The notes under the pieces were generated by a model, which was not told the DNA's origin, did no database searches, and saw only the letters and a list, made by a program, of their open reading frames with translations. A DNA stretch of 64,000 bases from NCBI GenBank assembly GCA_050250895.1, contig JBFWNU010000001.1, positions 3,379,557 to 3,443,556 on the forward strand. The letters run 5' to 3'. Within the stretch, counting starts at the first letter, position 1, and each line of letters begins with the position of its first letter. The translations under genes were made by a program, and so were the position numbers. Source of the stretch: Vulcanimicrobiota bacterium (lineage in GTDB: Bacteria > Vulcanimicrobiota > Xenobia > Xenobiales > JADMJV01). Below are positions 24,668 through 38,633 of this stretch, piece after piece.

Positions 24668-25348
24668 GTGAGCAACATCGACATTCATCTCAAGATCGAC
24701 CGCCACCGGTCGGGTAACACTCGCATCCACGGCCGCGTGGGGGCCGACCAGCACGACGTCAACGTCTGGAAAGGTCCACAACCTGGCGATGCCTACATCG
24801 AGGGACGCCAGAACGGGCAGCCCACCACGCTGCGCATCAACGGTGCCTTTTCGGACAGTGGCCAGGCCATTTTCGGCCGGGTGGCCGGAGTGCCGTTCAA
24901 AGGCAACTGGGCTCAGCAAGAGAGCGACGGCGACGCCCGGCTCGACCTGAACAAAGCCAATCTGACCATCGACAATGATCCCGCTGCCGGGACCACCGAG
25001 TCAAAAGGGACCGCTGTCAAGAGCAGCGGCAAAGTGGTCAACGCCGAAGGCGACGAAGAATTGACCCTTTTGGCTGACGGCCGCCGTATCAATCTTAGCG
25101 TGGACCGACAGCCGGGCGGCAACATCGAACTGCGCGGCCGCAGTGGAGACGGAAATTTTCGTGTCACCATGCGCCGCCACGGCCGCGAAGGCGACCTTCA
25201 GGTCGACGGTAGCTTGCCCGAGAACCTGGCTTTGCTACCCGTCATGTGGGAACTCTACGGCGACGACTCGGTCGAACCGCCGGCCAAGCCCCTGACCATG
25301 GGGGCGGCGGCAACCTTGAGCGCGTTCTGGGACACGCACCTGCGTTAG
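24668..25348 (+). CDS. Hypothetical beta-rich protein
   Basis: 226-aa ORF with typical codon usage, convergent with the radical SAM gene. Confidence 0.65.
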   Translation: MSNIDIHLKIDRHRSGNTRIHGRVGADQHDVNVWKGPQPGDAYIEGRQNGQPTTLRINGAFSDSGQAIFGRVAGVPFKGNWAQQESDGDARLDLNKANLTIDNDPAAGTTESKGTAVKSSGKVVNAEGDEELTLLADGRRINLSVDRQPGGNIELRGRSGDGNFRVTMRRHGREGDLQVDGSLPENLALLPVMWELYGDDSVEPPAKPLTMGAAATLSAFWDTHLR

Positions 25349-26862
25349 CGCGGCGGGGGAGTGCCCACCAGCGACGGGTCCCAGAAATCGCCCGACTCAT
25401 AGATGTGGCGCACCTGGCAGTAGATGAGCAGCGATTTGCTCACCGCCTCGGAGGCGGGCGTGCCTCGCCAGCGCAGACTCTGCTCTGTTAGCCGGCGCTC
25501 GCCATCACCTCGTTTGCGTAGCCGGTCCAAGAGCTGCAAAGCTACGGTCGACACTCCGGCTTCGGGACGGCAAGCTACGACCGGAGCGGGCCGCCCCACC
25601 AGCAGGCGCGCCATGGCTTCCAGCCGGCGCCCGTAGTTGTCGGGAGCATACAGATTGTTGGCCAGCCATCGTTGCCCCTCGACCAGTTGCTCGAGTGAGA
25701 AACCAGCGGGCTTGATGTTGGTCTGCCAGGGCCAGCCGAAGGCCACCTCGCGATCCTCCAGTCGCCCCTCGCGTCGGAGCCGGGCGTAAAGCGGGGTGCC
25801 CATCGGGGCCACCAGGCTAGAAAGAGTGAAAAGTGGCACGGGCGACTCCTGGGCGAAGGCAAATTGCCGCTCGAAAATGCTGGGGTCGTCGTTGTCAAAG
25901 CCGACCATCATTCCGGCGTGGACCAGAATTCCGTGCTCGAGAAATCGGCTGATGTCGGCGATCAAATCCCTCCCGACGTTCTGTCGTTTGCCGGTTTCTC
26001 GAAGGCTCGCCTCGTTAGGCGTTTCGACTCCGATGAAGACTTCACTCAGACCGGCCGAAGCCGCCAGTTCGAGCAGTTGGGGATCGCGGGCAGCGTCGAT
26101 CGAGGCCTGAGTTGCCAGCAGCACAAAGTTGCCTCGGCGCCGATTCCAGTCGCGAACCGCCTCGAGCACCTCGCGCGCCCGGGCGCGATGCACCAGGAAA
26201 TTGTCGTCGCAGACGAAGACCCGCGAGGCCCCGGCTGCGAGCAGCCCGTCGAGTTCTTGCAAGATGTTGGCCACCGGCTTAAACCGCTGACGGCGGCCCA
26301 GATACTGAATGACATCACAGAACTCACATTGGAACGGACATCCTCGCGACGTCTGAAGAGCCCCCAGCCGGGCGCGTTTGACCAGGTCGCGGCTCCATCG
26401 CGGGATAGGACTGGTCTCTAACTCGGGTCGCGTCCCCAGATAGGTGTCCCCGGCCTGACCCCGAGCCAGATCCGAAAAGAGCCCCTCGGCGATCTCTTCG
26501 ATCTCTCCGGTCACCAGCACATCGCAATGATCGCGCACCGCTTCAGGATCGAGGGTGACCCCGGGACCCCCCATAACGACGGTTAGTCCCCGTCGGCGAT
26601 AGCTGTCGCCGAGGGCCCGCATGCGAGGCAACTGGCTCGACTTGCCGGTGATGGCCACCACCGAGCCGTCAAAGTCGAGAGAGGCGGGGGTAAGGCGCTC
26701 GTCGCACACATGCACCTCGAAGAACGGTTCGGCCATGCTGGTCAGGGTGGGCAACACCAGGTCGGCGATGGCGGCCAGGGGCGTGGCTCCCCACTCGCGG
26801 GCGCAGTCAAGCTCGAAGAACGAGGGGGGAGCGGACGGGTTGATCAGGTAAAGGCTAGGCAC
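25345..26862 (-). CDS. B12-binding domain radical SAM enzyme
   Basis: TSRGCPFQCEFC (CX3CX2C) and N-terminal cobalamin-domain VVMGGPGVT. The GTG start overlaps the upstream stop. Confidence 0.92.
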   Translation of the reverse strand: MPSLYLINPSAPPSFFELDCAREWGATPLAAIADLVLPTLTSMAEPFFEVHVCDERLTPASLDFDGSVVAITGKSSQLPRMRALGDSYRRRGLTVVMGGPGVTLDPEAVRDHCDVLVTGEIEEIAEGLFSDLARGQAGDTYLGTRPELETSPIPRWSRDLVKRARLGALQTSRGCPFQCEFCDVIQYLGRRQRFKPVANILQELDGLLAAGASRVFVCDDNFLVHRARAREVLEAVRDWNRRRGNFVLLATQASIDAARDPQLLELAASAGLSEVFIGVETPNEASLRETGKRQNVGRDLIADISRFLEHGILVHAGMMVGFDNDDPSIFERQFAFAQESPVPLFTLSSLVAPMGTPLYARLRREGRLEDREVAFGWPWQTNIKPAGFSLEQLVEGQRWLANNLYAPDNYGRRLEAMARLLVGRPAPVVACRPEAGVSTVALQLLDRLRKRGDGERRLTEQSLRWRGTPASEAVSKSLLIYCQVRHIYESGDFWDPSLVGTPPPR

Positions 26863-29578
26863 CGAGAGTCCCCAATATCCTGAGATGGTGTTCCAGGGCC
26901 CTGGGGCGCAGAGACGCCACCACATCGGGCCAGCGAAGTTCCAGATTCAGGGCCAGGGAACGGGTCAGAAACTCGACTCGTTCGTCGACCGTTCCGTAGG
27001 CGGGCTGGGCCACTTCGACGAATTCGCCGCGGACCTGACCGGTGGGGGTAATCTGGGGATAGAAGGCCAGCAGTCGGGCCCCCGTTTCGACCGCCAGACG
27101 GGCGGCGCCCGAGCGAAACACGCGCCTTCGCCCACGAAATGCGACCACCACCCCGTCTTCACCGTCGTCCCAATCCACGGCCACCACTGCCACCCCTGCG
27201 CGGGAAAGTGCTCGTCGAGCCAGGTCCAACTGAATGAGGGACTCGGCGGTGGGATGCTGGGCGGGGTAGCCGAGTTGGCGTCGGGCCATCGTGCCCAGGC
27301 GGCCCACCGCCGCCAGGGGTCGGCCGGGGAAGGCCTCAGGGCCTAGCAGCAGGGGATTGAGCCGCGAATGGACGATGGCTAACACCGTTCCCCCTTCGGG
27401 CTCACTCCAGCCGCAGGCTGTAGTCCACTCGCTAGAGATGGCGTGGCGCCGCCATCGTGACCAGGTGTTGGCCAGCATGAAGCGGGTCAGTAGCGGGCTC
27501 CAGGGTTGCTCCACCTGGCTGACTTCGAGCAGTTGACGCAAAAGACCGAGCTCGGACCTCCACAGCCTGGTTGCCAGCCAGGGCTGGCTCAGCAGCCTGG
27601 TCAGCAGCCACGATCCCGCGGCATAAGGCAGAACCAGTCGACCCCATTGGGGTCCTCGTTCCCGCACCAGAGAAAGCCAGTTTTTGGCGGGCTTGTGTGG
27701 CCGTCCCGGGGGCGGGGCAGAAGGCGGTTGCATCGGGGGTGATTGGCCCATCACTAGAGCCACCAATCCATTCACGGTAGGTTCCTCGGCCAGGGCCTCA
27801 ACAGAAATCTCCACCGCCAATTGAGCCTCGAGACTCCAGATCAGATCCACCAGCGCGAGCGAGTCCAGGCCAACCGTCAGCAGATTAGCGTCGGCGTCCA
27901 GGGATTGACCCGTCTTGCTCTCGAGAACCCTGAGCACGTAGCGGACCAGGCTCTGGGGCGTTCGCTGGCGGGGAAGAGTGGGCTGGGTCGGGCCCCACCC
28001 CCTTAGCAGGTATGCTGCTCGGCAGGCTTGACGACGGAGTTTGCCGCTGGTGGTTACCTCGAGAAAGCCGGCTTCGACCAGGCGAACATCGGCCAGAACC
28101 AACCCGTGATGGTGCCAGATGGCGTGGCGCAAGTCGGCAGCCAGGAGCTCTTGCTGGGGGGGCGACAAAGATGACCGGCGTAGCTCGCCGATGAGCACCG
28201 CCGACTCGGTCGACTCACCGCCAGCCCGGATGCCGACCACGGCGACCCGCCGCAATCGATTTCCGCCAGCCTGCAGGGCTGTGTCTTCGAGGGGAGCGGG
28301 CGGGAAGTTGCGGCCTCCGCAGATGAGCATATCATCTTGACGTCCCACCACGTAAAGTTGACCGTTCTCGCAATAGCCGCGGTCGCCGGTGTGAAGCCAG
28401 CCGTCCTCGATGACCGCCGGTCCGTCCTCGAGATAGCCCGCCATGAGCGAGTGGGACCGGACCAGAATTTCTCCTGGTTGGCCATCCGAAACCATGCCGT
28501 GTTCTCCCCAAATGGCCACCTGGTTGCCCGGCAGGGCCGGACCGCAACTGACGACATCGTGGTCGTTCACCAGCATTCCGCCGTCGCTGATGGTCACCGC
28601 ACAAGTGGCCTCGGCCAGGCCGTAGCCGGCTCGAAAGGTCTCGGGACGAGCGCCGAAGGCTGCAAATTTTTGCCAGAAGTTGCGCATGGTTTCTGCTTGG
28701 ATCGGCTCTCCTCCATTGGCTACGATCCTCAGACTGCTCAGGTCAAGACCCGCCAGGTCCCGGGCTCGTGACCTGGTGGTGGCGTGATGATAGCCCCAGT
28801 TCGGCATGAAGATCATGCTGCCCGAGAATTCGCTGACGGCGCGAAACAGCAGCGAGGGGTTGCGCACCCACCGGGTGGGTGGCAGGGTGACCAGACGACC
28901 CCCGACTAAAAGCGGCATCAACAGATTCACCACCAGTCCAGCGTCGTGGTACCAGGGCATCCACCCTACCGCCACGTCGTCAAGGCCGAACGGAAAGGTG
29001 CGGGCCACGCAGTCGACCTGGCTCAACAGAGCGTGGGCCGAGATGAGCACGCACTTCGAGGCGCCGCTGGTGCCGCTGGTGAACTGCAAGAAGGCCGGCT
29101 CGGTGGCGGCTACCCTTCGGCCTTGAGCCTGCCGCTCGGGCAACCTGGCCGGGTCAAACTCGAGCACCGGGCAGGCTGCCTCAAGCTCGGCCCCGGGGGC
29201 GGCCACGACCGCCCGAATCGAGTATTTCTCCACCCGGGCAGCCAGGGTCGGCCCATAGACATCGGTGCGCCGGTATTGCGAGAGGTAGGGCAGGACAGCG
29301 GGAACCATCCCGGCGTAGAGGGCGCCCAGGAAGGCCAGGATCATGGCCAGGTCGTGCTCGCCCGCCAACAAGACGCGGCTGCCCGGCTCGAGACCGGCCG
29401 CCTCGAACCAGGCTGCGCTCCGGCGCACCCGTTGCAGCAACTGCCGATAGCTGACTTTTTCCTCGAGGTCTGGCTTGGGTAGTGACACCACTCCCCAGCT
29501 TCTGAGATCAGGCTCATCCCAGCGATCCAGAAGGTCGGCCAGGGGCGTGTCACAGTCGCCCCGAAGGCCGTGGGGCAT
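26855..29578 (-). CDS. Fatty acyl-AMP ligase + ACP + LpxL/LPLAT-like acyltransferase tridomain protein
   Basis: FLQFTSGTSG, WMPWYHDAGL, GYGLAEAT, TGDRG, TTSGK; ACP GLDSL; C-terminal VAVD...FRGRRRVFRSGAARLAVETGA. Confidence 0.85.
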   Translation of the reverse strand: MPHGLRGDCDTPLADLLDRWDEPDLRSWGVVSLPKPDLEEKVSYRQLLQRVRRSAAWFEAAGLEPGSRVLLAGEHDLAMILAFLGALYAGMVPAVLPYLSQYRRTDVYGPTLAARVEKYSIRAVVAAPGAELEAACPVLEFDPARLPERQAQGRRVAATEPAFLQFTSGTSGASKCVLISAHALLSQVDCVARTFPFGLDDVAVGWMPWYHDAGLVVNLLMPLLVGGRLVTLPPTRWVRNPSLLFRAVSEFSGSMIFMPNWGYHHATTRSRARDLAGLDLSSLRIVANGGEPIQAETMRNFWQKFAAFGARPETFRAGYGLAEATCAVTISDGGMLVNDHDVVSCGPALPGNQVAIWGEHGMVSDGQPGEILVRSHSLMAGYLEDGPAVIEDGWLHTGDRGYCENGQLYVVGRQDDMLICGGRNFPPAPLEDTALQAGGNRLRRVAVVGIRAGGESTESAVLIGELRRSSLSPPQQELLAADLRHAIWHHHGLVLADVRLVEAGFLEVTTSGKLRRQACRAAYLLRGWGPTQPTLPRQRTPQSLVRYVLRVLESKTGQSLDADANLLTVGLDSLALVDLIWSLEAQLAVEISVEALAEEPTVNGLVALVMGQSPPMQPPSAPPPGRPHKPAKNWLSLVRERGPQWGRLVLPYAAGSWLLTRLLSQPWLATRLWRSELGLLRQLLEVSQVEQPWSPLLTRFMLANTWSRWRRHAISSEWTTACGWSEPEGGTVLAIVHSRLNPLLLGPEAFPGRPLAAVGRLGTMARRQLGYPAQHPTAESLIQLDLARRALSRAGVAVVAVDWDDGEDGVVVAFRGRRRVFRSGAARLAVETGARLLAFYPQITPTGQVRGEFVEVAQPAYGTVDERVEFLTRSLALNLELRWPDVVASLRPRALEHHLRILGTLGA

Positions 29579-31298
29579 GCTGGATTGCCTGGTCACCGTC
29601 TCGTCACGAGATTTTCTAGTGGGTACGATGGTGATGTTGGGATCATTTGTCCGCCACCATCCGGACTTCGTCGGGGAGCTGATGGTGGTCCATGACGATC
29701 TCGACCCAGAGCAGCAAGAATGGTTGCAGCAACGGATTGGAAGGGCGGTCGGCTTCGTCCCTGCCGACCCTTCCCTGGTGGGTGCCACCGCTCTGTTGCG
29801 GCACCGATTGGCGCGATTTGAGCGACGTTATCGTCAGTTCTACTCATTGCAGGCAATTTCACTCGAGGGCTACCGAAAGGTAATCTTCTGCGACAGTGAC
29901 ACCCTTTTCCTTGCGCCCGTCCGGGACCTCTTCCAAGAGTCGTCCGAGTTGTTGGCCTGCCGGGATCGGATGACCATCCTGGGCCAACGCCGCTGCCGTA
30001 GAACCTTCGAGCCGGCTCCGCACAATGCGTTTGAAGCGACCTTCAATGCGGGTTTCATGGTATTCGATGGCAGCCGGCTCGGGGCCCCGGTCTTCGAGTC
30101 GGCTCTACGCTGGCTACGCCCAGAAATTCTGGCTGAGGTGCCGAATCACACCGATCAGTTTGTCCTGAATCATCTTTATGAGGGACGGGTCCACTGGCTC
30201 AGCAATCGATACAATTTCTTGCTGTCGGTGGCCCAAGAGCTTTTTGGCCAGGGGGGCCTCGAGGCGTCGCAGGTGCGAGTGGTTCACTTTGCCGGCAACG
30301 ACGCGACTCCCTGGACCGACTATCAAGCGACACCCCCAACTCGGGTCTTCTATGAGGCCTGGCACCAACTGGCCGACGAGCTGCTTCGGGTCGGCTTGTC
30401 GGCGTATTCCAACCCGCAAGGCCCGGGTGGGAACTACCTGGCCCACGGCCTGGTCTGGCGGTCTGAGGTGCCCCTCGAGGCGCCCCGGACCGGCAGGCCG
30501 CCTGACGTAAGAATTCGTTGGGGAGCGACGCCTGAACCTGATGCCAGTTGGAAGCGACTTCCTTATGGCTGGGCCAAACCCGACCAGTTTCTGGCCATCA
30601 CCCCTGGGGGCGGACGCCTGTGGGTCTCTCGGGGCCAAGAGATTTGTCTCGACCAGCAGTCAGAGGACCCGCAGCTATTCTGGCTCTATTTGGTGGGCCT
30701 GGCTACCGGGGCTCTGTTGCTCGAGCGGGGTGAGTTGGTCCTGCATGGAGATGCCGTGGTGCTCGACGACCGGGCCGTGGTTTTAGGCGGACCGTCAGGT
30801 TGCGGCAAGTCCACGCTGGCCTGTCAGTTGGGCGGCCGTCTGCTTTGCGACGACGTGACGGTGGTGCGCAACAGCCCCGCCGGTCTGACCGTGTTGGCGG
30901 GCCTGGGGCCGCTTAAACCTCGGCTGCTTGGCCTGGCCAAGAACGGCCATCCGGCGCAAGAGGTCTTGAGCGGCCGGCCTGCCCGAGCGGCTATCCCCAT
31001 CGAGCCGGCAGGTTCCCAGTTTCCGCTGGCGGCAGTCTATCTCCTCGACCAGCCCCCGGCCAGGATCCGGGGAGCGCGCCTGGCGGCCCTGGCCAAGACG
31101 CTGTTCTATCGGCCCGAACTGGCCGCCGCCCTGGGGCGCGCTCGGGAGAACTTCGACCACTTGCAGACTCTAGCCAGGACCCGGGTGGTGGGGCTCGAGT
31201 CCGCCGACCCGGCCGAGCAATCCAGGCGTATTCTTGCCGACCTGGAAGGAAAGATTTTCTGTCCCCCCGAGGAAGAGAGCGGCCATGGCCTGGTTTGA
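29577..31298 (+). CDS. GT8 glycosyltransferase fused to an HPr-kinase-like (lasso-peptide kinase type) domain
   Basis: GT8 motifs CDSD, FNAGFMV, DQFVLN, YNF, VHFAG; kinase LHGDAV..GPSGCGKSTL..LLCDDV. Confidence 0.85.
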   Translation: MLDCLVTVSSRDFLVGTMVMLGSFVRHHPDFVGELMVVHDDLDPEQQEWLQQRIGRAVGFVPADPSLVGATALLRHRLARFERRYRQFYSLQAISLEGYRKVIFCDSDTLFLAPVRDLFQESSELLACRDRMTILGQRRCRRTFEPAPHNAFEATFNAGFMVFDGSRLGAPVFESALRWLRPEILAEVPNHTDQFVLNHLYEGRVHWLSNRYNFLLSVAQELFGQGGLEASQVRVVHFAGNDATPWTDYQATPPTRVFYEAWHQLADELLRVGLSAYSNPQGPGGNYLAHGLVWRSEVPLEAPRTGRPPDVRIRWGATPEPDASWKRLPYGWAKPDQFLAITPGGGRLWVSRGQEICLDQQSEDPQLFWLYLVGLATGALLLERGELVLHGDAVVLDDRAVVLGGPSGCGKSTLACQLGGRLLCDDVTVVRNSPAGLTVLAGLGPLKPRLLGLAKNGHPAQEVLSGRPARAAIPIEPAGSQFPLAAVYLLDQPPARIRGARLAALAKTLFYRPELAAALGRARENFDHLQTLARTRVVGLESADPAEQSRRILADLEGKIFCPPEEESGHGLV

Positions 31299-31851
31299 CG
31301 GTCACGTGCGTGACCTGGGTGGGATTGACGAGCAACTGTTAGCACCGTTGCGCCAGCAAGTTTTGGAACGGGCCGACTTCTGGGCCGGAGCCGACCGCCT
31401 AAAGCCCAACCATTTTGCCTGTTTCGAGGGGGCGGCCGAGCATATCGTCTTTCGCTATCCCCAGAGCCCGTCCGACCACCGGCAGTCGGGCGACTTTCCG
31501 TTCTATCGCAAGTGGGCGCCTTTGATCGAACCCATCATCGAAGCCGCCACGGTCAGTTACGGGTTTGCGCGGGGACAGGCCTCGCGCATCATGCTGGCCA
31601 AACTTCGGGCCGGCGGCGAACTGGGGGTGCACGTTGACGCCGCCCCGTCGGCCGAGGTCCCGCACAAGATCCATGTCCCGCTGGTGACCAAGCCCGAAGT
31701 GGTCTTTATCGCCGAAGACGAGGCTTATCACCTGTCCGCTGGGCGGGCCTGGGAGGTCAATAATCGGGTTCTGCATGGTGGGCGCAACCCTTCGACCATC
31801 GACCGGATTCACTTGATTTTTGACTACTTTGACGCCCATGACTTGCACTGA
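31285..31851 (+). CDS. Aspartyl/asparaginyl beta-hydroxylase (Fe/2OG)
   Basis: HVD...IHVPL...NN..LHGGRN..DRIHLIFD. Confidence 0.88.
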   Translation: MAWFDGHVRDLGGIDEQLLAPLRQQVLERADFWAGADRLKPNHFACFEGAAEHIVFRYPQSPSDHRQSGDFPFYRKWAPLIEPIIEAATVSYGFARGQASRIMLAKLRAGGELGVHVDAAPSAEVPHKIHVPLVTKPEVVFIAEDEAYHLSAGRAWEVNNRVLHGGRNPSTIDRIHLIFDYFDAHDLH

Positions 31852-32797
31852 GGCCACTCGGTTCAAAGCTTGTCCCGGCATGACCGCCTGGTTGCTCGAG
31901 CGACAGGTCAGCCTGCTGGTCACCGGCTATGCCAGCGCCCGCCTCTTTCTGGTTGGCAGCCAGCAGGGCCGATTGAGCTTCCAGGAGCGGGACTTCGTGC
32001 CGTGTATGGGGGTGGCTGCCCATCGAGGCCTGATTTACCTCGGCACCCGTACCAGTCTCTGGAGCTTCGACCCCAAGCCCGGATACCTCAAGCCGGTTCG
32101 CTGCTGGGTGACCGACAACGTGCGCATTCACGATGTCGGGGTCGACCGGGTTGGAACTCCCCTGCTGGTCAACACCCTGCACAACTGTCTGGTGACTCCA
32201 CGCTCGCGGGGTATCGGCTTTGAGGTGGTCTGGAAGCCCGACTTCATCAGTTCGACCGAACAGGGTGACCGCTGTCACCTCAACGGCCTGGCCATGCACG
32301 CCGGCCGGGCGTGTTTTGTCACCCTGGTGGCCCGCAGCGACGAGGTCGACGGCTGGCGCCAAAGCAAAGTAGGTGGCGGTTGTGTGGTCGAAGTGTCGAG
32401 CCAGCGGGTCGTGCTCGACGGCCTGACCATGCCCCACTCGCCCAGGCTTTACCGTGATCGTCTGTGGGTGCACGACTCTGGCAGCGGATGGTTGGGCTGG
32501 GTCGACCAGACTCGAGGACGATTCGTTCGCCACGCCTTTGTTCCGGGCTTTCCCAGAGGACTCTGCTTCTGCGGAGACTACGCCCTGGTTGGAGTTTCGA
32601 CCATCCGTTACTTTGGTCAGACCGAGTTTCCCATCGAGGCAGAGTTGACCAGTCGGGAACTCGACGATTTTTGCGGGGTCTGTGTGATCTGTCTCGAGAC
32701 GGGAGCCACGGTGGGGACGCTCTCGTTCGAGGGTCTGGCCGAGGTGTATGACCTGGAAGTGATCCCAGCCCCGCACCTCGAGTTGAGGTGGACTTGA
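31838..32797 (+). CDS. TIGR03032/DUF4915 family protein
   Basis: VNTLHNCL, WKPDFIS, DRCHLNGLA, GLTMPHSPR, PGFPRGL. Confidence 0.88.
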   Translation: MTCTEATRFKACPGMTAWLLERQVSLLVTGYASARLFLVGSQQGRLSFQERDFVPCMGVAAHRGLIYLGTRTSLWSFDPKPGYLKPVRCWVTDNVRIHDVGVDRVGTPLLVNTLHNCLVTPRSRGIGFEVVWKPDFISSTEQGDRCHLNGLAMHAGRACFVTLVARSDEVDGWRQSKVGGGCVVEVSSQRVVLDGLTMPHSPRLYRDRLWVHDSGSGWLGWVDQTRGRFVRHAFVPGFPRGLCFCGDYALVGVSTIRYFGQTEFPIEAELTSRELDDFCGVCVICLETGATVGTLSFEGLAEVYDLEVIPAPHLELRWT

Positions 32798-33342
32798 GCT
32801 GGTTCGAAGGCAAGATCCGTGAGCTGGGTCCGGTCAACTGTACCGAGCTGACGGCGATGGTCGAACGGACCTCGAAGGCGGTCTGGACAGCCCAGAGTTT
32901 TCGGCAAGATCATTATGCGGTGCACCACCAGACCCGCTCGCTCATTTTTCGCTTTCTGACCGGCGATGGGCTCGAGGGTGTAGACCAGCCCCCCTGGCTG
33001 GCCTGGAAGAGCCTGGTCGAGCCGGTCATCGCCCAGGCTGTTGAAAGCTACGGCTACCGGCAGGGGCGATGCGCCCGGATCATGCTGGCCAATCTGCCGG
33101 CAGGCTCGTCGATTTCACCCCATCGCGATGTCGGCGAGTCGTTCGCCCGCACCCATCGGCTGCATGTGCCTTTGCTCACCCATCCCGAGGTGTGCTTCGA
33201 ACTCGACGGCGAGCCCTTTCACCTGGCCCAGGGACATGCTTACGAAATCAACAATCTGCTCTCGCATGGGGTGACCAACCCGGGCCCAGGAGACCGCGTC
33301 CACCTCATCTTCGACTATTACGAGGCCTATGAACAGACCTAA
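32788..33342 (+). CDS. Aspartyl/asparaginyl beta-hydroxylase, second copy
   Basis: ISPHRD..HRLHVPL..EINNLLSHGVTN..DRVHLIFDY. Confidence 0.88.
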   Translation: MDLSWFEGKIRELGPVNCTELTAMVERTSKAVWTAQSFRQDHYAVHHQTRSLIFRFLTGDGLEGVDQPPWLAWKSLVEPVIAQAVESYGYRQGRCARIMLANLPAGSSISPHRDVGESFARTHRLHVPLLTHPEVCFELDGEPFHLAQGHAYEINNLLSHGVTNPGPGDRVHLIFDYYEAYEQT

Positions 33343-33964
33343 GGTTTTTGGAGTAGGCTTGCCCAAGACCGGCACCACTTCTCTGGGGCGCGCTCTCGAG
33401 TGGATGGGCTATCGGGTCTGCGGCGGGCTCGGTCAAAGGGTGCGCGCCCGGGTCGAGAGCGGCGACCCCATCGAGGCCGTGGTGCCAGAGTTGGTCGAGC
33501 GCGAAGTCGAGCGCCATGACGCTTTTCAAGATAATCCCTGGCCGGTGCTTTTTGAAGAGATGGCCCGACGGTTTCCCGATAGTCTTTTCGTCTTGACCCT
33601 GCGTCCCGAGCAGGAATGGCTGGCCAGCTTCGTTCGCCATTTCGGCTCACGGCACTCTCCCTTGCGCGAGTGGATCTTCGGGGCGGGAGCGCCGGAGGGT
33701 AACGAACAGGCCTATCTTGATTTCTTCCGAGTTCACTATCGTCGGGTCCTGGAGCATTTTGCCGACCAATCCCATCGGCTGTTGGTACTTCGCTTATGCG
33801 AGGGAGAAGGCTGGCAACCCTTGTGCCAGTTTCTGGGACAACCCCAGCCGGACCAGCCCTTTCCCCACCTCAACAGCGCTCGGGCCAGGGCCCAGCGCCA
33901 ACTGGATCAGGTGGTCGACGAGCTACGCCGGCAGCGACGTCACCAGTCCGAGTCGTTTTCGTAG
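33329..33964 (+). CDS. Sulfotransferase family protein
   Basis: KVFGVGLPKTGTTSL PAPS-binding loop; GWQPLCQFLG..FPHLN. Confidence 0.88.
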   Translation: MNRPKVFGVGLPKTGTTSLGRALEWMGYRVCGGLGQRVRARVESGDPIEAVVPELVEREVERHDAFQDNPWPVLFEEMARRFPDSLFVLTLRPEQEWLASFVRHFGSRHSPLREWIFGAGAPEGNEQAYLDFFRVHYRRVLEHFADQSHRLLVLRLCEGEGWQPLCQFLGQPQPDQPFPHLNSARARAQRQLDQVVDELRRQRRHQSESFS

Positions 33965-34713
33965 CCGAGTTCGAGCAGCAGGTCTCCAAAGCGTCTTTTG
34001 AACTCGCCTTTGATCTGGCTATTGAAGTGGTCACGCCAGTCTCCGGCGACTCCGCGCCGGTAGTGGTGATGGACGTCGACCTGACCGCGCGGGCGTCCCT
34101 GGCTCTGGGCCTCAAAGCCGTATCGGTCGAGGGCTTGCTCGAGCAATTCCTGGCAGTCGAGGCGCAAGAACGCAAAAGCCTGGTGCAAGACCGGTCGAGG
34201 CGACTCGATCAGGTCTTCAAAACGGAGTCTCAACAAGCGGTCGGACCACCCGCCACACTCGCGCAACTGCTCGAGGTAGACCGAGCTATAGTCAAGCTCG
34301 AGCAGCAGGCCTTGCTCCATGGGGAGGCTCTCGAGGCTTTGTCGGTGCTCGGCCTGGTAGGCGTGCCTCACCGGGTGGGAATAGCGGTGGGAATAGTAGC
34401 ACGAGACCAGCATGTCCCGCGGGTCTCGGATGAATTCACAGCCGCGGTAGTCGACTCTTTCCAATCGTTCGATCACAGCTGCGTGAGCGTTGCGGTGCAA
34501 GACCACATCCGAGCTGTTCAGGGCGCTTTCCCAACGGTGCAGCATTTGCAGCCAGGCGGCGATCGATTGGGGATGGCGGTGGGCGCGGGCGGGCAAGTGC
34601 TTGGGGCGATGCTCCTGAGTTAGGTCGAGGTCCAGGCCACGCGCTACGAACTTGACCACCTCGCGAACAAAGGTCGAGGCGCAACGGTGATGACACAGAA
34701 AGGCCCTGACCAT
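33940..34713 (-). CDS. Sulfotransferase domain protein
   Basis: HHRCAST, RDPRDMLVSCYYSH, RFEDL, HYRRGVAGDWRDHF. Confidence 0.88.
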   Translation of the reverse strand: MVRAFLCHHRCASTFVREVVKFVARGLDLDLTQEHRPKHLPARAHRHPQSIAAWLQMLHRWESALNSSDVVLHRNAHAAVIERLERVDYRGCEFIRDPRDMLVSCYYSHRYSHPVRHAYQAEHRQSLESLPMEQGLLLELDYSSVYLEQLRECGGWSDRLLRLRFEDLIESPRPVLHQAFAFLRLDCQELLEQALDRYGFEAQSQGRPRGQVDVHHHYRRGVAGDWRDHFNSQIKGEFKRRFGDLLLELGYENDSDW

Positions 34714-34714
34714 C

Positions 34715-36349
34715 TCACGCCTTGCCCGCCTCGACCCACTCCAAGAAGCGTCCCACCAGAATGGTCCGGACCAGGACCTTCAGGGCGAGATGGTAGGCCC
34801 CCGCCGAGAAATCGTCGTCGGCCGGAAGATGATGGAACAGGGGGCGAACCTGATCCCAGTCGATGAAGTGGTTGCAGAGTTGGCTGTTAGTCAGTCGCTC
34901 GAGTTCGCCGCGAAGCGCGGGCGCACAGCCGCGCAAACGGGCTTGCCAGCCAACGTCTTGCATGCCCACGGTGGACCGGTCGAGGACCAGGTCGGGCACG
35001 ATCCCTCGCAGGCTGTCGCGCACGGCCCGGCGCTTTTGTCCCTCGCGAGCAAAGAACTCGCGGGGGGCCTGCAGGCAGAACTCCACCATTCGAAGATCGG
35101 TGGTGGGGTCGAGTTCTTCCAGTCCAAAGCGCCCTCGCCAGTAGTTATGCAAAGCACCCACTTTGCCCCGCAGATAGATGCGCAAGAAACGACCGCGGGG
35201 GCTCTGGTCGATGGCTCGCAATCGCTTCTCGAGTTCCAGTTCTCGGGCTCGTTCCGGCCGCAGGGCGAGGTCGGCCTTGCGCACCGCGCTGCCCCGGCGA
35301 AGCCCAAGCGAGGTGGCCAGACGTTTCTTCCAGTTGGTCTTGGGCAGGCCCGAGGAGGAGAAGAGCAGATTGCCTCCCCGACCTCCGATGAGAACGGTCA
35401 AGCCAGTCTCGACGGCCCGGGCCGCGATCTTTTCTCCCCAGCCTCCGAAGAGATGACGGGCGGGCTCGCCGGTGAGAGCGTGCCACTGGTCGTCGATGGC
35501 GGCCAGCGGATCACCGGGATCGCGTACATACTCGATCTTCAGGTTGGGATATTGCACGAGCACAGCGTCGATGAAGGGCTCGTCGCGATAGCTACGCCCA
35601 GGCGGCGCGGGCGCCTGACAATCTTCGGGTGGCAAGTAGGTGAAGCAGGGAAACTTTCGCTCGGGCCTTTGCCGGGCCGCCAGGCACGCTACCGAAGTCG
35701 AGTCCAACCCTCCGCTCAGGTGAAAGCCCACCTGTGTGTCCTGGGTCAGACAGTCCTCGACGGCGCAGGTGAAGAGGTCTCGAAACCGAGACTCGAGTTC
35801 GGGCAATTCCCCTCGACGCAGAGGACGATGCCAACGAAAGTCCGCCGGAGACCAATAGCTCTGGATTCGCGTCTGTTGTCCGTCAAAAAGCAAGAGATGA
35901 CCCGGGGGAAGCTGGCGCAGGTCTTTAAACATAGTGCGGCTGGGCTCGGCTGTGCGCAAACCGCCTCCCACCAGCGCTGCGGCCACCGCCAACGGGTCGA
36001 CCTCGGTCCCCACGCCGGGCAATTGCCGTAACCGGCGGATGTGGTTCGACAGCCAGAGCGGGTCGCCCGAACGATAGTAGAGGGTTCGGCCCCCCAGCGG
36101 TCCTCGGATGGCCACCAGCCTTCGTTCCTCGGTGTTCCAAAAGACGGCGCAAAAGTCATGGGCGACCCGGCTGCATTCGGCCGCCCCTTTGCTCAAGTAG
36201 GCCGCCAACAAGTGCTGCACGCCGCTGGCATCGACGGGAAGGTCAGACCGAAAGCGGGCGTCGGCCACGCCGAGCCAGGGCCCCACGGCTTCGCCGGACC
36301 CGCCGCCGACTGCGACCCGCCCATCGACTTCAAGGCAGAAATCAGCCAA
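34715..36349 (-). CDS. Asparagine-synthetase-like lasso cyclase (C protein)
   Basis: LSGGLDS PP-loop, GGRGGN, DPTTDLRMVEFCL. It lacks the N-terminal catalytic Cys of true AsnB and lies directly downstream of precursor A1. Confidence 0.85.
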   Translation of the reverse strand: MADFCLEVDGRVAVGGGSGEAVGPWLGVADARFRSDLPVDASGVQHLLAAYLSKGAAECSRVAHDFCAVFWNTEERRLVAIRGPLGGRTLYYRSGDPLWLSNHIRRLRQLPGVGTEVDPLAVAAALVGGGLRTAEPSRTMFKDLRQLPPGHLLLFDGQQTRIQSYWSPADFRWHRPLRRGELPELESRFRDLFTCAVEDCLTQDTQVGFHLSGGLDSTSVACLAARQRPERKFPCFTYLPPEDCQAPAPPGRSYRDEPFIDAVLVQYPNLKIEYVRDPGDPLAAIDDQWHALTGEPARHLFGGWGEKIAARAVETGLTVLIGGRGGNLLFSSSGLPKTNWKKRLATSLGLRRGSAVRKADLALRPERARELELEKRLRAIDQSPRGRFLRIYLRGKVGALHNYWRGRFGLEELDPTTDLRMVEFCLQAPREFFAREGQKRRAVRDSLRGIVPDLVLDRSTVGMQDVGWQARLRGCAPALRGELERLTNSQLCNHFIDWDQVRPLFHHLPADDDFSAGAYHLALKVLVRTILVGRFLEWVEAGKA

Positions 36350-36352
36350 TGG

Positions 36353-36493
36353 TCACGACAAGGCGTAAGAAGGAGCAGTCCCCCCGCCGTCGCCCGGATT
36401 GGTATCCATGTTGGTAGCCAGGGTGTTGGAGATATCGAGGCGCGTGAGAACGGGGGCGTTCCACGGTCTGCGCAGGCTGGGCTCATTACTCAT
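36353..36493 (-). CDS. Lasso-type RiPP precursor A1: MSNEPSLRRPWNAPVLTRLDISNTL-ATNMDTNPGDGGGTAPSYALS
   Basis: Manually translated 46-aa ORF with a WxxPxLxxLDIxxT leader; stop lies 3 nt before the cyclase start. Confidence 0.88.
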   Translation of the reverse strand: MSNEPSLRRPWNAPVLTRLDISNTLATNMDTNPGDGGGTAPSYALS

Positions 36494-36567
36494 TGCCAGC
36501 CGTTTCGACGGCCTCAATCGGGGCCCTGCTGAAGGATTAGCGCGACCGATGCCAAAAGCGACAATCG

Positions 36568-36834
36568 ATGCTCTCGCGCAGTAACAACATCGTCGCTAGC
36601 GAACTTGATGGGGACCTCGTCATGATGAGCGTGGATACCGGTAATTACTATTCTCTCGACGAGGTGGGAGCGGCCATCTGGGAGCTGCTCGACCAGCCCC
36701 GTCCGACCGGTGAACTCGTAGAAGGGTTAGTCAAACGCTTCGAGGTCGAGCGCGAGACCTGTCTGGAAGATATCAAGCCCTTTTTGGCCGAACTGTTAGC
36801 CGAGGGGATCTTGATCGAGACCGCTCAAGATTGA
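36568..36834 (+). CDS. PqqD family RiPP recognition element (lasso B1)
   Basis: DGDLVMMSVDTGNYYSLDEVGAAIWELL..FEVERETCLEDI..FLAELLAEGIL. Confidence 0.93.
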   Translation: MLSRSNNIVASELDGDLVMMSVDTGNYYSLDEVGAAIWELLDQPRPTGELVEGLVKRFEVERETCLEDIKPFLAELLAEGILIETAQD

Positions 36835-36965
36835 TAACTGCCCATTCCGCCCCCGCCATCTGGCGGGTTGCCAGCGAGGGTGGTAGAGAGCGTGTTGGCG
36901 ATCTCGAGCCGGGTTAGCCGGGGTGCCCGCCAGGCACGGCGCGGCATTTCTTGTATGTCTGACAT
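36825..36965 (-). CDS. Lasso-type RiPP precursor A2: MSDIQEMPRRAWRAPRLTRLEIANTL-STTLAGNPPDGGGGMGSYQS
   Basis: Manually translated 46-aa ORF, paralogous to A1 (RRxWxAPxLTRL[DE]IxNTL, NPxDGGG, SY..S). Confidence 0.88.
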   Translation of the reverse strand: MSDIQEMPRRAWRAPRLTRLEIANTLSTTLAGNPPDGGGGMGSYQS

Positions 36966-37006
36966 AGCCGAAGCTTCGGCTTCGGGTAGGTCAGTCCTGC
37001 CTCAGA

Positions 37007-37198
37007 TTAGAAGGCGAAGGCGCTGGTCAGATTGGCCACCAGATCGTTGGCCTCGTCGTCGTCCTCGAAGGCCTCGGCGCCCAGGTTGATGTGGTCGCAA
37101 GGGGCGACCGTCCCCGCCACTTCGGGAGCCTGGCCGGCAAAACTCCAGAGTTGATTCTGGTTCTGGAGTTGACTGGTGGAGATGTAAGTGTCTTTCAT
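37007..37198 (-). CDS. Small acidic hypothetical protein
   Basis: 63-aa ORF with a GAGG RBS, co-oriented upstream of A2. Confidence 0.55.
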   Translation of the reverse strand: MKDTYISTSQLQNQNQLWSFAGQAPEVAGTVAPCDHINLGAEAFEDDDEANDLVANLTSAFAF

Positions 37199-37295
37199 CG
37201 TCGTGAAACCTCGCTGCCCTTTGATTCTGCCACAGCAGCCTTAAAGAAACCTTGAGCCCGCCAGGGATCTCGCCTTGACGACGGAAGGTCGGGGC

Positions 37296-38633
37296 ATGAA
37301 GCGCCCTTCACAACTCGAGCAGTTTCTTGAGAGCCAGCAGGAGGTCGGCCAGACCGAGTCCCATGGCGCCTTTACCATCGCCCGAGACGAGGCGCTCAGA
37401 AAACTGGCCTCGTTTCGGCTGCCCTTCGAGCGCGCCTGGGTACTCAAGATCGTGCAGGCGGCGGTGGCCTCGGGGGCGCCTTCGCTCGACATCAAGCAAA
37501 CCTCCACCGATACCGAATTCCACTTCGCCGCTCCCAAGAGCTGGACGCTCGAGCGGTTGGAGGCGGCCTTCTTCAACCCCCAAATGTCAGGAGATCGCGC
37601 CCTGGACCATCTCCTGGCGGGTCTGTGGGGCGCCAGCCTCAACGATGGCCGGCCTTTCCAACTGCTCTGGCCCGGCTGCCCCGAATCGCTGATCTGGTCG
37701 GGCCGCGAGATGACCCGCATCCAGGACCCCGAACCGGTGAGACAAATGCAACTGGTGGTCTCGCACCGGCGCCTCGAGGAAGGCAAGGGGATCTTCGGTA
37801 TTCGCTACATTCAGGCCGCCCAGCGCAACGCCGACATTCTCAAGACGCTGACCCACCGGGCCTTCACCTGTTCCATTCCGCTGCGGGTCGACGCCCGTCG
37901 CATGGACGCCCTGCCGCTCTCTCCCAATCACGGTTATAGCCAGGCCAATCATCCCGTCTGTGTGGGCTGGGCCCCCGGCGGTTCGCTTGTCCTGCCGCCG
38001 GGGACCTTCGCGGGTGTGCTCCCCTCCGAACAGACCCACAAAAAAGAGGCCACGCGCTCGCTATCTTCTCAGGTGGAACGGCCAGCCGTGCCCGACACTA
38101 ACAAGGTTGTGGCCGCCTGGCTGATGACCACGCATTTTGAAGAGGTCAAAAGCGGCAAGAGCAAGACCTGGAAGCTGCGCGACCAGGCCAGCAAGCTCTA
38201 CTGGGTTCATGACGGGGTGATTCTTGGCTCGGAAGAACTCTTTCCCATCGAGAGGTCTGTTTCCATCGGAGTGTTTGCAGACGCGGGCGACCTCAAACTG
38301 GACGTCACCGGCTTCGGCATCATCCACGAAGAGGCGCACGAGGCCCGCAGGAAGCGAGTGCTGCAGACGGCGGCCGCCGCTTTCGAAGCGGTCCCGGTCA
38401 TCTCGCTGCAGGGCCTGGTCGAGGATGCCCAGCAATCGGGTCGCTCGGTAGGCACCGTCATGGCGGTGGGGGGAGTGTTGACGCTGGCCCTATCGCCCTT
38501 GCACTCGTTGATGTTCTTCGCCGGGGCCGCCTTTTCTTATTACACGGCCGGCAACGTCGAGGCCGGCATCGAGAGTGGTTTGCAGACGGCCCTTTCTGAC
38601 CTGCGGGCTCAGTACTTGTCCGAGTGGGGTTAG
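37296..38633 (+). CDS. Hypothetical protein, same N-terminal module family as 7786-10038, with C-terminal TM
   Basis: ESHGAFTIARDEALRKLASFRL..KIVQAAVASGA. Confidence 0.7.
   Translation: MKRPSQLEQFLESQQEVGQTESHGAFTIARDEALRKLASFRLPFERAWVLKIVQAAVASGAPSLDIKQTSTDTEFHFAAPKSWTLERLEAAFFNPQMSGDRALDHLLAGLWGASLNDGRPFQLLWPGCPESLIWSGREMTRIQDPEPVRQMQLVVSHRRLEEGKGIFGIRYIQAAQRNADILKTLTHRAFTCSIPLRVDARRMDALPLSPNHGYSQANHPVCVGWAPGGSLVLPPGTFAGVLPSEQTHKKEATRSLSSQVERPAVPDTNKVVAAWLMTTHFEEVKSGKSKTWKLRDQASKLYWVHDGVILGSEELFPIERSVSIGVFADAGDLKLDVTGFGIIHEEAHEARRKRVLQTAAAAFEAVPVISLQGLVEDAQQSGRSVGTVMAVGGVLTLALSPLHSLMFFAGAAFSYYTAGNVEAGIESGLQTALSDLRAQYLSEWG

Follow-up and report, generated by a model that had tools for sequence, protein, structure and literature searches.

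How large can the ring of a naturally encoded lasso peptide be? The question is raised by two small paralogous genes in a 64,000-nucleotide stretch of Vulcanimicrobiota bacterium DNA (assembly GCA_050250895.1, contig JBFWNU010000001.1, here contig 1, positions 3,379,557 to 3,443,556; hereafter the window, to which coordinates refer unless stated otherwise). Precursor A1 (36353..36493, minus strand) and its paralogue A2 (36825..36965, minus strand) are each 46 residues long and both carry a WxxPxL leader motif, an Asn-Thr-Leu junction and a C-terminal Ser. When the core is counted from the residue that follows Asn-Thr-Leu, the Asp common to the two peptides falls at position 10. Characterised lasso rings have 7-9 residues, a premise of the initial annotation that matches PMC8498205, PMC6993621, PMC13352647 and PMC12214591, and we found no natural 10-residue lasso ring in the published literature, reviews included. 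What appears to be new here is a kinase/sulfotransferase-type lasso cluster whose precursors, as read from their sequences, break the ring-size count. We tentatively favour a 10-residue ring formed after a cut behind Thr24-Leu25, which we would put at somewhat less than an even chance.

Both precursor genes are real. The A1 frame is listed as 36353..36517, within which an internal ATG at 36493 yields the 46-residue peptide, and A1 and A2 are identical letter for letter to P0001 and P0002 of the protein collection. The two peptides are 56% identical to each other. Their leader motifs read WNAPVL (A1) and WRAPRL (A2), of the [Y/W]xxPxL form to which the RiPP recognition element (RRE) binds (PMC10368454; PMC13381572), and their cores open with ATNMDTNPGD and STTLAGNPPD, respectively; the putative A1 core comprises 21 residues from Ala26 and, together with its stop codon, occupies 36353..36418 on the minus strand. 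The A1 core has an additional Asp at position 5 and the A2 core has no other Asp or Glu, leaving Asp10 (Asp35 of A1) as the only acidic core residue that they share. The arithmetic of the initial annotation, with Asp at core position 10 in both peptides and no second acidic residue in the core of A2, agrees with the translated frames, as does its description of Gly-rich tails with few bulky residues (3 Gly among 11 residues in A1 and 5 among 10 in A2, with Tyr the chief bulky residue). From Arg8 to Leu25 of the leader 13 of 18 residues are identical, and at 7 of these codons the only difference is synonymous. The residues Thr24, Leu25 and Asp35 are each retained despite a synonymous change in their codon. 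Together with the shared leader motif, the C-terminal Ser and the neighbouring B1 and cyclase genes, these patterns mark A1 and A2 as true lasso precursors of the paeninodin type under purifying selection. Similarity to the paeninodin family model itself is weak: NF033524 scores A1 at 18.8 bits, below its cut-off of 27, and gives no match to A2 at E up to 1.

The ring count depends on where the leader is cut. Elsewhere on contig 1, the leader of a precursor at 2.164 Mb shares, from Trp to Thr-Leu, the spacing and much of the sequence found in A1 and A2, from the motif Pro through Leu-Asp-Ile and two further residues to Thr-Leu, and past Thr-Leu it goes on into a canonical Ala1...Asp9 ring. Thr-Leu followed by a small residue is the junction in both of the other precursors of this genome that we read (2.164 Mb and 3.477 Mb), and the residue following Thr-Leu in A1 and A2 is Ala or Ser, which are classical first ring residues. 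Moreover, amino-acid conservation between A1 and A2 falls immediately past Leu25, with 6 of the 9 changes at positions 26-34 being nonsynonymous.

Relatives of these precursors are few. Two word-indexed profile searches of 5.8 billion proteins returned three proteins each, namely A1, A2 and P0003 with the first profile and A1, A2 and P0032 with the second. At E up to 0.001, six proteins matched in a full hidden Markov model (HMM) search across 1.84 billion representatives. Four of them were A1, A2, P0003 and P0032; the other two, leucine-rich-repeat proteins of 585 and 716 residues, were discarded as spurious. P0032, a 46-residue peptide found at E 6e-5 on a single short assembly contig, is the sole outside close relative from the protein searches. 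Scans of species-representative genomes revealed no close copy of the precursors, only one 12-residue chance match, and none of 251 candidate stretches from a metagenome scan with the precursor profile held one. Profile search of 41 related genomes produced 19 non-self matches, of which five were kept (L037, L038, L053, L054 and L055) and 13 were dropped as frames without a plausible peptide. L036 was set aside as a 25-codon open reading frame (ORF) with just six residues past the junction, and L047 and L048 were excluded as unclear. A further search of 401 related genomes added 11 new matches, one of which was kept (L062). The comparison set thus comprises nine precursors: the 2.164 Mb type (L007/P0003), P0032, L038, L055, L037, L054, L053, L062 and the 3.477 Mb precursor (L076:9128-9262).

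In five of these nine relatives, the presumed Thr(-2) stands 10 residues past the Pro of WxxP; in two more the distance is 11 and in another 13, and L053 bears Ala at +10, where Thr(-2) would be expected. By this count an Asp or Glu falls at 7-9 in all nine, and A1 and A2 (Thr at +10) alone give 10. Therefore, as far as the sequences tell, the extra residue is specific to the A1/A2 pair and has been maintained through the divergence of the paralogues. The set-aside L036 (L036:1504-1581, plus strand, in the relative genome G007) has a flawless lasso-type leader, with WxxPxI followed by Thr-Ala, and then just six more residues ending in Ser, with a hairpin beyond the ORF. Being too short to form a lasso, it may be a decoy, a remnant or the source of another kind of product.

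A1 and A2 are separated by 330 bases, and between them on the opposite strand sits the gene for B1 (36568..36834, plus strand), an 88-residue PqqD-type leader-recognition protein (PF05402, E 6.7e-21) that passes the lasso B1 model NF033536 with 82.3 bits against a cut-off of 80. No B2 leader peptidase (PF13471) is present in the window, and the four PF13471 matches of the genome all lie elsewhere. There are four B1-plus-cyclase clusters in the genome: that of the window, two more on contig 1 at 2.166 Mb and 3.477 Mb, and one on contig 9 at 0.233 Mb. Good PF13471 genes number only two, the copy in the contig 9 cluster and an orphan near 933 kb of contig 1, and both of these intact candidates retain the Cys and His motifs. 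Since B2 is absent from three of the four B1-plus-cyclase clusters, the genome seems, as a rule, to supply the peptidase in trans. The orphan B2 is distant from any cyclase and is likely the shared leader peptidase of the B2-less clusters. It is located at about 933,380-933,910 of contig 1 (plus strand; L031:5383-5913; PF13471, E 8e-27), right after type II secretion E/F genes.

The orphan B2 (residues 30-176) was modelled together with B1 and A1 as a three-chain complex. The model scored 0.74, with the best of three controls at 0.01, and passed a mark that 51 of 78 solved complexes reach, as do 2 of 108 mismatched pairs. Runs agreed in at least 58% of contacts, with a partner pLDDT (predicted local distance difference test) of at least 81. 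In the predicted complex, the A1 residues touching B2 with low expected error are 17 and 19-26, the last of these being Ala26. The modelled B2 interface includes residues 116-118 and 147-151, and within these stretches fall Cys117 and His150, presumably the catalytic pair. Tyr27 of B1 is also predicted to contact B2, in line with a Tyr of the RRE reported to have a role in the S2 pocket (PMC10368454). Because the model places A1 residues 19-26 on the catalytic Cys/His region of B2, it favours a cut after Leu25, and contacts that end at Ala26 would agree with the Leu25-Ala26 bond being the scissile one. The pass may reflect the likeness of a textbook B1/B2 pair to known complexes, and it is no proof that this copy binds.

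The ring would be closed by the product of the adjacent cyclase gene (34715..36349, minus strand), which starts 4 bases past the A1 stop and encodes an Asn-synthetase-like protein (PF00733, E 1.1e-23). At 523-544 residues, this cyclase keeps the PP-loop SGGLDS, which is invariant in the alignment, and has a reduced N-terminal domain that is without stretches carried by its relatives. Of the NCBIfam models, that of the lasso cyclase (NF033535) matches it best, albeit at 122.6 bits against a cut-off of 525. The nearest relative among the 5.8 billion proteins is 36% identical and the next 29%, whilst identity to the three paralogous cyclases of the genome is 24-26%. Moreover, it is the only short cyclase in the genome, with an open frame of 545 residues compared with 612, 632 and 628. 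A metagenome scan with the cyclase pair found five loci of 27-40% identity on contigs of 1.5-4.6 kb, and a motif scan of these five loci saw no precursor. Sequence search of the PDB returned only a hydroxyamidotransferase (7ylz), and the ESM Atlas returned three unnamed clusters at a score of 0.90. An AlphaFold2 model of the cyclase, built from a 6-row alignment, was set aside because its pLDDT averaged 55 and stayed below 50 over the N-terminal 145 residues.

From the observed genes, homology and spacing we infer a pathway, in which the cut site, ring closure, threading and all tailoring remain conditional. B1 would bind the WxxPxL leader, and a peptidase encoded elsewhere, most likely the orphan B2 near 933 kb of contig 1, would cut after Thr24-Leu25, so that A1 would begin with Ala and A2 with Ser. 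The divergent short cyclase would then couple this freed N-terminus with the sole invariant Asp through the Asp side chain, giving a 10-residue macrolactam, one residue beyond the known natural maximum. A ring of this size is enzymatically feasible, since variants of fusilassin with rings of 7-10 residues are tolerated (PMC13352647). The C-terminal Ser, and probably the conserved Tyr of the tail as well, would be decorated by a GT8/kinase-like enzyme and sulfotransferases, and the added groups may help to retain the tail inside a wide ring.

Several points weigh against a ring of ten. Lasso rings have been structurally characterised only at 7, 8 and 9 residues (PMC13352647; PMC12214591), and a review holds that rings of more than nine are too loose to keep the tail (PMC12427821), so priors favour registers with rings of 7-9. 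The most serious competitor to the 10-residue ring honours both hard rules, Thr at -2 and a ring of 7-9. In this register, which the initial annotation had counted correctly, the second Thr (Thr27 of A1) stands at -2, the leader exceeds those of paeninodin-type relatives by three residues and the ring runs from Met1 or Leu1, an unusual first residue, to Asp7. The alignment of homologues that had been proposed for finding the invariant Thr-Asp spacing speaks for it: the distance to the Asp is 8 from the second Thr in four of four precursors (A1, A2, P0032 and L038), compared with 11, 11, 10 and 10 from the first. When A1, A2 and P0032 are aligned, moreover, no Thr but Thr27 is invariant, Thr24 included, and two residues past the second Thr all four precursors have a hydrophobic residue (Met, Leu, Phe and Phe). 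In the 3.477 Mb precursor, the Thr(-2) lies 13 residues past the motif Pro, the same place as Thr27, and its Glu7 aligns with Asp35; the window B1 is 35% identical to the B1 of that cluster and 28% to that of the 2.166 Mb cluster. Tails rich in Gly and small side chains, with few bulky residues, suit a tight ring better, and 7-residue rings are known, as in huascopeptin (PMC12427821). When annotation rules conflicted in metanodin, the first-residue rule yielded (Asn) and Thr(-2) and ring size held (PMC12670498). Also, the complex model is a prediction, in which residues that are not named are uncertain rather than absent. Nevertheless, the leader up to Thr24-Leu25 is homologous, with residue-for-residue spacing, to that of a canonical precursor of the same genome that is cut there, and the three residues that would close the longer leader are poorly conserved, only one of the three being identical between A1 and A2. 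The modelled contacts extend only as far as Ala26, and a Thr(-2) so far from the motif occurs in just one of the nine related precursors. We regard the 7-residue ring as unlikely, though a serious contender. Of the two ring sizes that the initial annotation offered, 10 and 7, each has evidence in its favour. The local evidence favours the cut after Leu25: the homologous leader, the type of junction, the fall in conservation, the interface seen in the model and a cyclase that differs from its paralogues all point that way.

Two further readings seem less probable than either. Were the cut to fall one residue later, after Leu25-Ala26 (Leu-Ser in A2), Leu would stand at -2 and a nine-residue ring would run from Thr1 to Asp9. 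P0032 and L038, by their own Thr(-2), are predicted to form this same ring, starting at this Thr and ending at Asp9, and the four rings align with Thr, then Thr or Asn, a hydrophobic residue, and Asp at 9 followed by Gly. A penultimate residue other than Thr has been validated in BsfA (Ile), with Ile, Val or Ala predicted in other kinase-type precursors (PMC10368454), and L053 above would be another such case with its Ala. However, we saw no natural precedent for Leu at -2, and the Ile-to-Leu variant of BsfA was barely cleaved (PMC10368454). Moreover, a Thr lies one residue earlier, at the canonical place, and the B2 enzymes of the genome presumably also serve Thr(-2) precursors; we consider this ring improbable. 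It is also quite improbable, in our estimate, that no lasso is made at all, the peptides remaining linear or branched (phosphorylated, sulfated or glycosylated) or the cluster decaying after loss of its own B2. Such an outcome would suit a window in which no B2 gene was found, a cyclase with a reduced N-terminal domain and a score far below the NCBIfam cut-off, and precursors for which no close homologues were found in large protein databases; a sister family of linear peptides with RRE, kinase and glycosylation genes in common does exist (PMC13381572). Yet the cyclase frame is intact, with its PP-loop kept and its start next to the A1 stop, and the leader motif, Thr24, Leu25 and Asp35 have been kept in both precursors through synonymous change. 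The leaders bear WxxP, the mark of the paeninodin type, and not the YxxP of the linear family (PMC13381572). The window has no S26-type signal peptidase (PF10502), the three matches of the genome all being on other contigs, and the lack of a B2 gene from three of four B1-plus-cyclase clusters makes trans supply look normal here.

If the 10-residue ring does form, the genes around the cyclase bear on how its tail might be held. Directly downstream of the cyclase and on the same strand is a sulfotransferase (33940..34713, minus; PF00685, E 3.9e-12), and converging on it is a plus-strand operon (29475-33964). This operon begins with a 607-residue GT8 glycosyltransferase protein (29475..31298; PF01501, E 4.2e-16) that also contains a weak HprK-like segment. 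It continues with an Asp/Asn hydroxylase-like protein (31234..31851; PF05118, E 1.7e-06), a TIGR03032/DUF4915 protein (31820..32797; PF16261, E 4.7e-89; TIGR03032, 293.6 bits) and an Asp/Asn beta-hydroxylase-like protein (32788..33342; PF05118, E 1.9e-10), and ends with a second sulfotransferase (33329..33964; PF17784, E 1.5e-33). The HprK-like segment, residues 415-471, scores 27.9 bits against TIGR04352 (cut-off 200), and a Pfam scan found no Hpr_kinase domain in the protein. Neither a transporter nor a stand-alone kinase is present in the A1/A2 cluster. Sulfotransferases are present in all four B1-plus-cyclase clusters of the genome, and the precursors A1, A2, 2.164 Mb and 3.477 Mb all end in Ser and share a conserved Tyr at a distance of three or four residues from the C-terminus. 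Judged by its domains, the GT8/HprK-like protein is a candidate for modifying the C-terminal Ser, and the GT8-HprK fusion, if real, would offer a one-protein route to a phospho-sugar on that residue, unlike pseudomycoidin, in which the kinase and the NTP-transferase are separate. The initial annotation had speculated that such groups act as a steric lock for a large ring. The idea has a counterpart in pseudomycoidin, for which a C-terminal phosphate and sugar are proposed to help hold the tail in a ring of normal size (PMC6993621). The fuller proposal, of a first natural 10-residue macrolactam lasso made by a specialised short cyclase and threaded or switchable through sulfate and phospho-sugar on the Ser-Tyr...Ser tail in place of bulky side chains, is slightly less probable still.

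How does this cluster compare with known systems? Paeninodin (Paenibacillus dendritiformis) closes its ring on Asp9. That ring joins an N-terminal Ala to an inner Asp (PMC6993621), and the same count gives Asp at 10 in A1 and A2. The two systems have in common the WxxP leader, nearly invariant in the paeninodin family (PMC13381572), a split B1 of the NF033536 type, a C-terminal Ser, which in paeninodin is the phosphorylation site, and sulfotransferase genes, which are noted in paeninodin-like clusters (PMC8498205). They differ in that the A1/A2 cluster has no B2, transporter or stand-alone kinase, that A1 scores below the family cut-off and that A2 does not match. In pseudomycoidin (Bacillus pseudomycoides) the C-terminal Ser is phosphorylated and then glycosylated, and the lasso can form with the cyclase alone; however, its ring obeys the 7-9 rule, its cluster encodes both B1 and B2, and its glycosylation needs psmN, of the NTP-transferase type (PMC6993621), whereas the A1/A2 cluster has a GT8 domain fused to a weak kinase-like segment. 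The 7-10 residue macrocycles of fusilassin/fuscanodin (PMC13352647) are engineered and not natural, and come from an actinobacterial system with a YxxP leader and a native ring of 9. BsfA (Bradymonas sediminis) is of the kinase type and, with Ile at -2 established by in vitro cleavage, breaks the Thr(-2) rule; its cut site, like that of A1 and A2, was worked out from leader-motif spacing (PMC10368454). It differs in its predicted Gly1-Asp8 ring, in having YxxPxL at -17 to -12, in phosphorylation at ring Ser3 and in a cluster with its own B1 and B2 (PMC10368454). Metanodin, from a soil metagenome, breaks one annotation rule with its first residue Asn and was solved through Thr(-2) and ring size, with confirmation by mass spectrometry; it has a canonical ring size and a complete cluster and is not of the kinase type (PMC12670498). 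The linear polyphosphorylated peptides are cyclase-less, with a SipW-like signal peptidase and YxxP leaders (PMC13381572), whereas A1 and A2 have an adjacent cyclase, WxxP leaders and no PF10502 match in the window. If the second Thr stood at -2, A1 and A2 would join, through Asp7, the rare class of huascopeptin, which is not of the kinase/sulfotransferase type, unlike their own cluster. Huascopeptin begins with Gly and not with Met or Leu.

The surroundings of the precursors and the other lasso loci of the genome yielded further observations. A promoter and terminator scan of 36200-37400 found nothing. Immediately ahead of the A2 start lies a perfect 14-base palindrome (within 36966-36990). 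A gap of 41 bases separates A2 from an upstream 63-codon ORF on its strand (37007-37198, minus) that is gene-like in its third-codon-position GC content (GC3, 0.78) and has no family match. Downstream of B1, on its strand, a 452-residue protein (37275-38633, plus) has a hydrophobic-looking C-terminus and no Pfam or NCBIfam match. Abutting the tailoring operon are a B12-binding radical SAM protein and a 977-residue AMP-binding/carrier-domain protein (25345-29788, minus), which might belong to the lasso cluster and serve, for instance, in acylation or methylation. At about 2,161,800-2,167,900 of contig 1 (L030:5832-11897) there are genes for a cyclase, a PqqD protein, an HprK-like kinase, a sulfotransferase and a YcaO protein, with no B2. 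The 2.164 Mb precursor (L007:1453-1602, minus) lies directly upstream of the YcaO gene and is paeninodin-like with a Cys-rich core and the canonical Ala1-Asp9 ring; its product could be a lasso peptide with azol(in)e or thioamide groups as well. An NCBI assembly labelled Candidatus Eremiobacteraeota has a near-identical peptide in its annotation. About 33 kb past the end of the window, a sister cluster (contig 1, about 3,474,400-3,483,400; L076:4408-13409) contains a cyclase, a divergent B1, a 2-oxoglutarate (2OG) oxygenase, an HprK-like kinase, four or five sulfotransferase-like genes and a GT8 gene, and again no B2. Its precursor (minus strand) has 44 residues, with Thr-Leu then Gly-Gly and Glu7/Asp8.

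A ring size of 7-9 is built into the tools for finding and modelling lasso peptides; LassoPred, for example, accepts Asp or Glu solely at 7, 8 or 9 (PMC12214591). If the second Thr were the true -2 residue and the ring had seven residues starting with Met or Leu, leader length and first residue would vary more than the rules assume. A natural 10-residue ring, if true, would widen the chemical space of lasso peptides and show that genome mining has been missing a class of precursors, and engineers would gain a cyclase whose ring-size preference is new. Moreover, if modification of the tail is the lock, it would be a novel means of stabilising or releasing a mechanically interlocked peptide.

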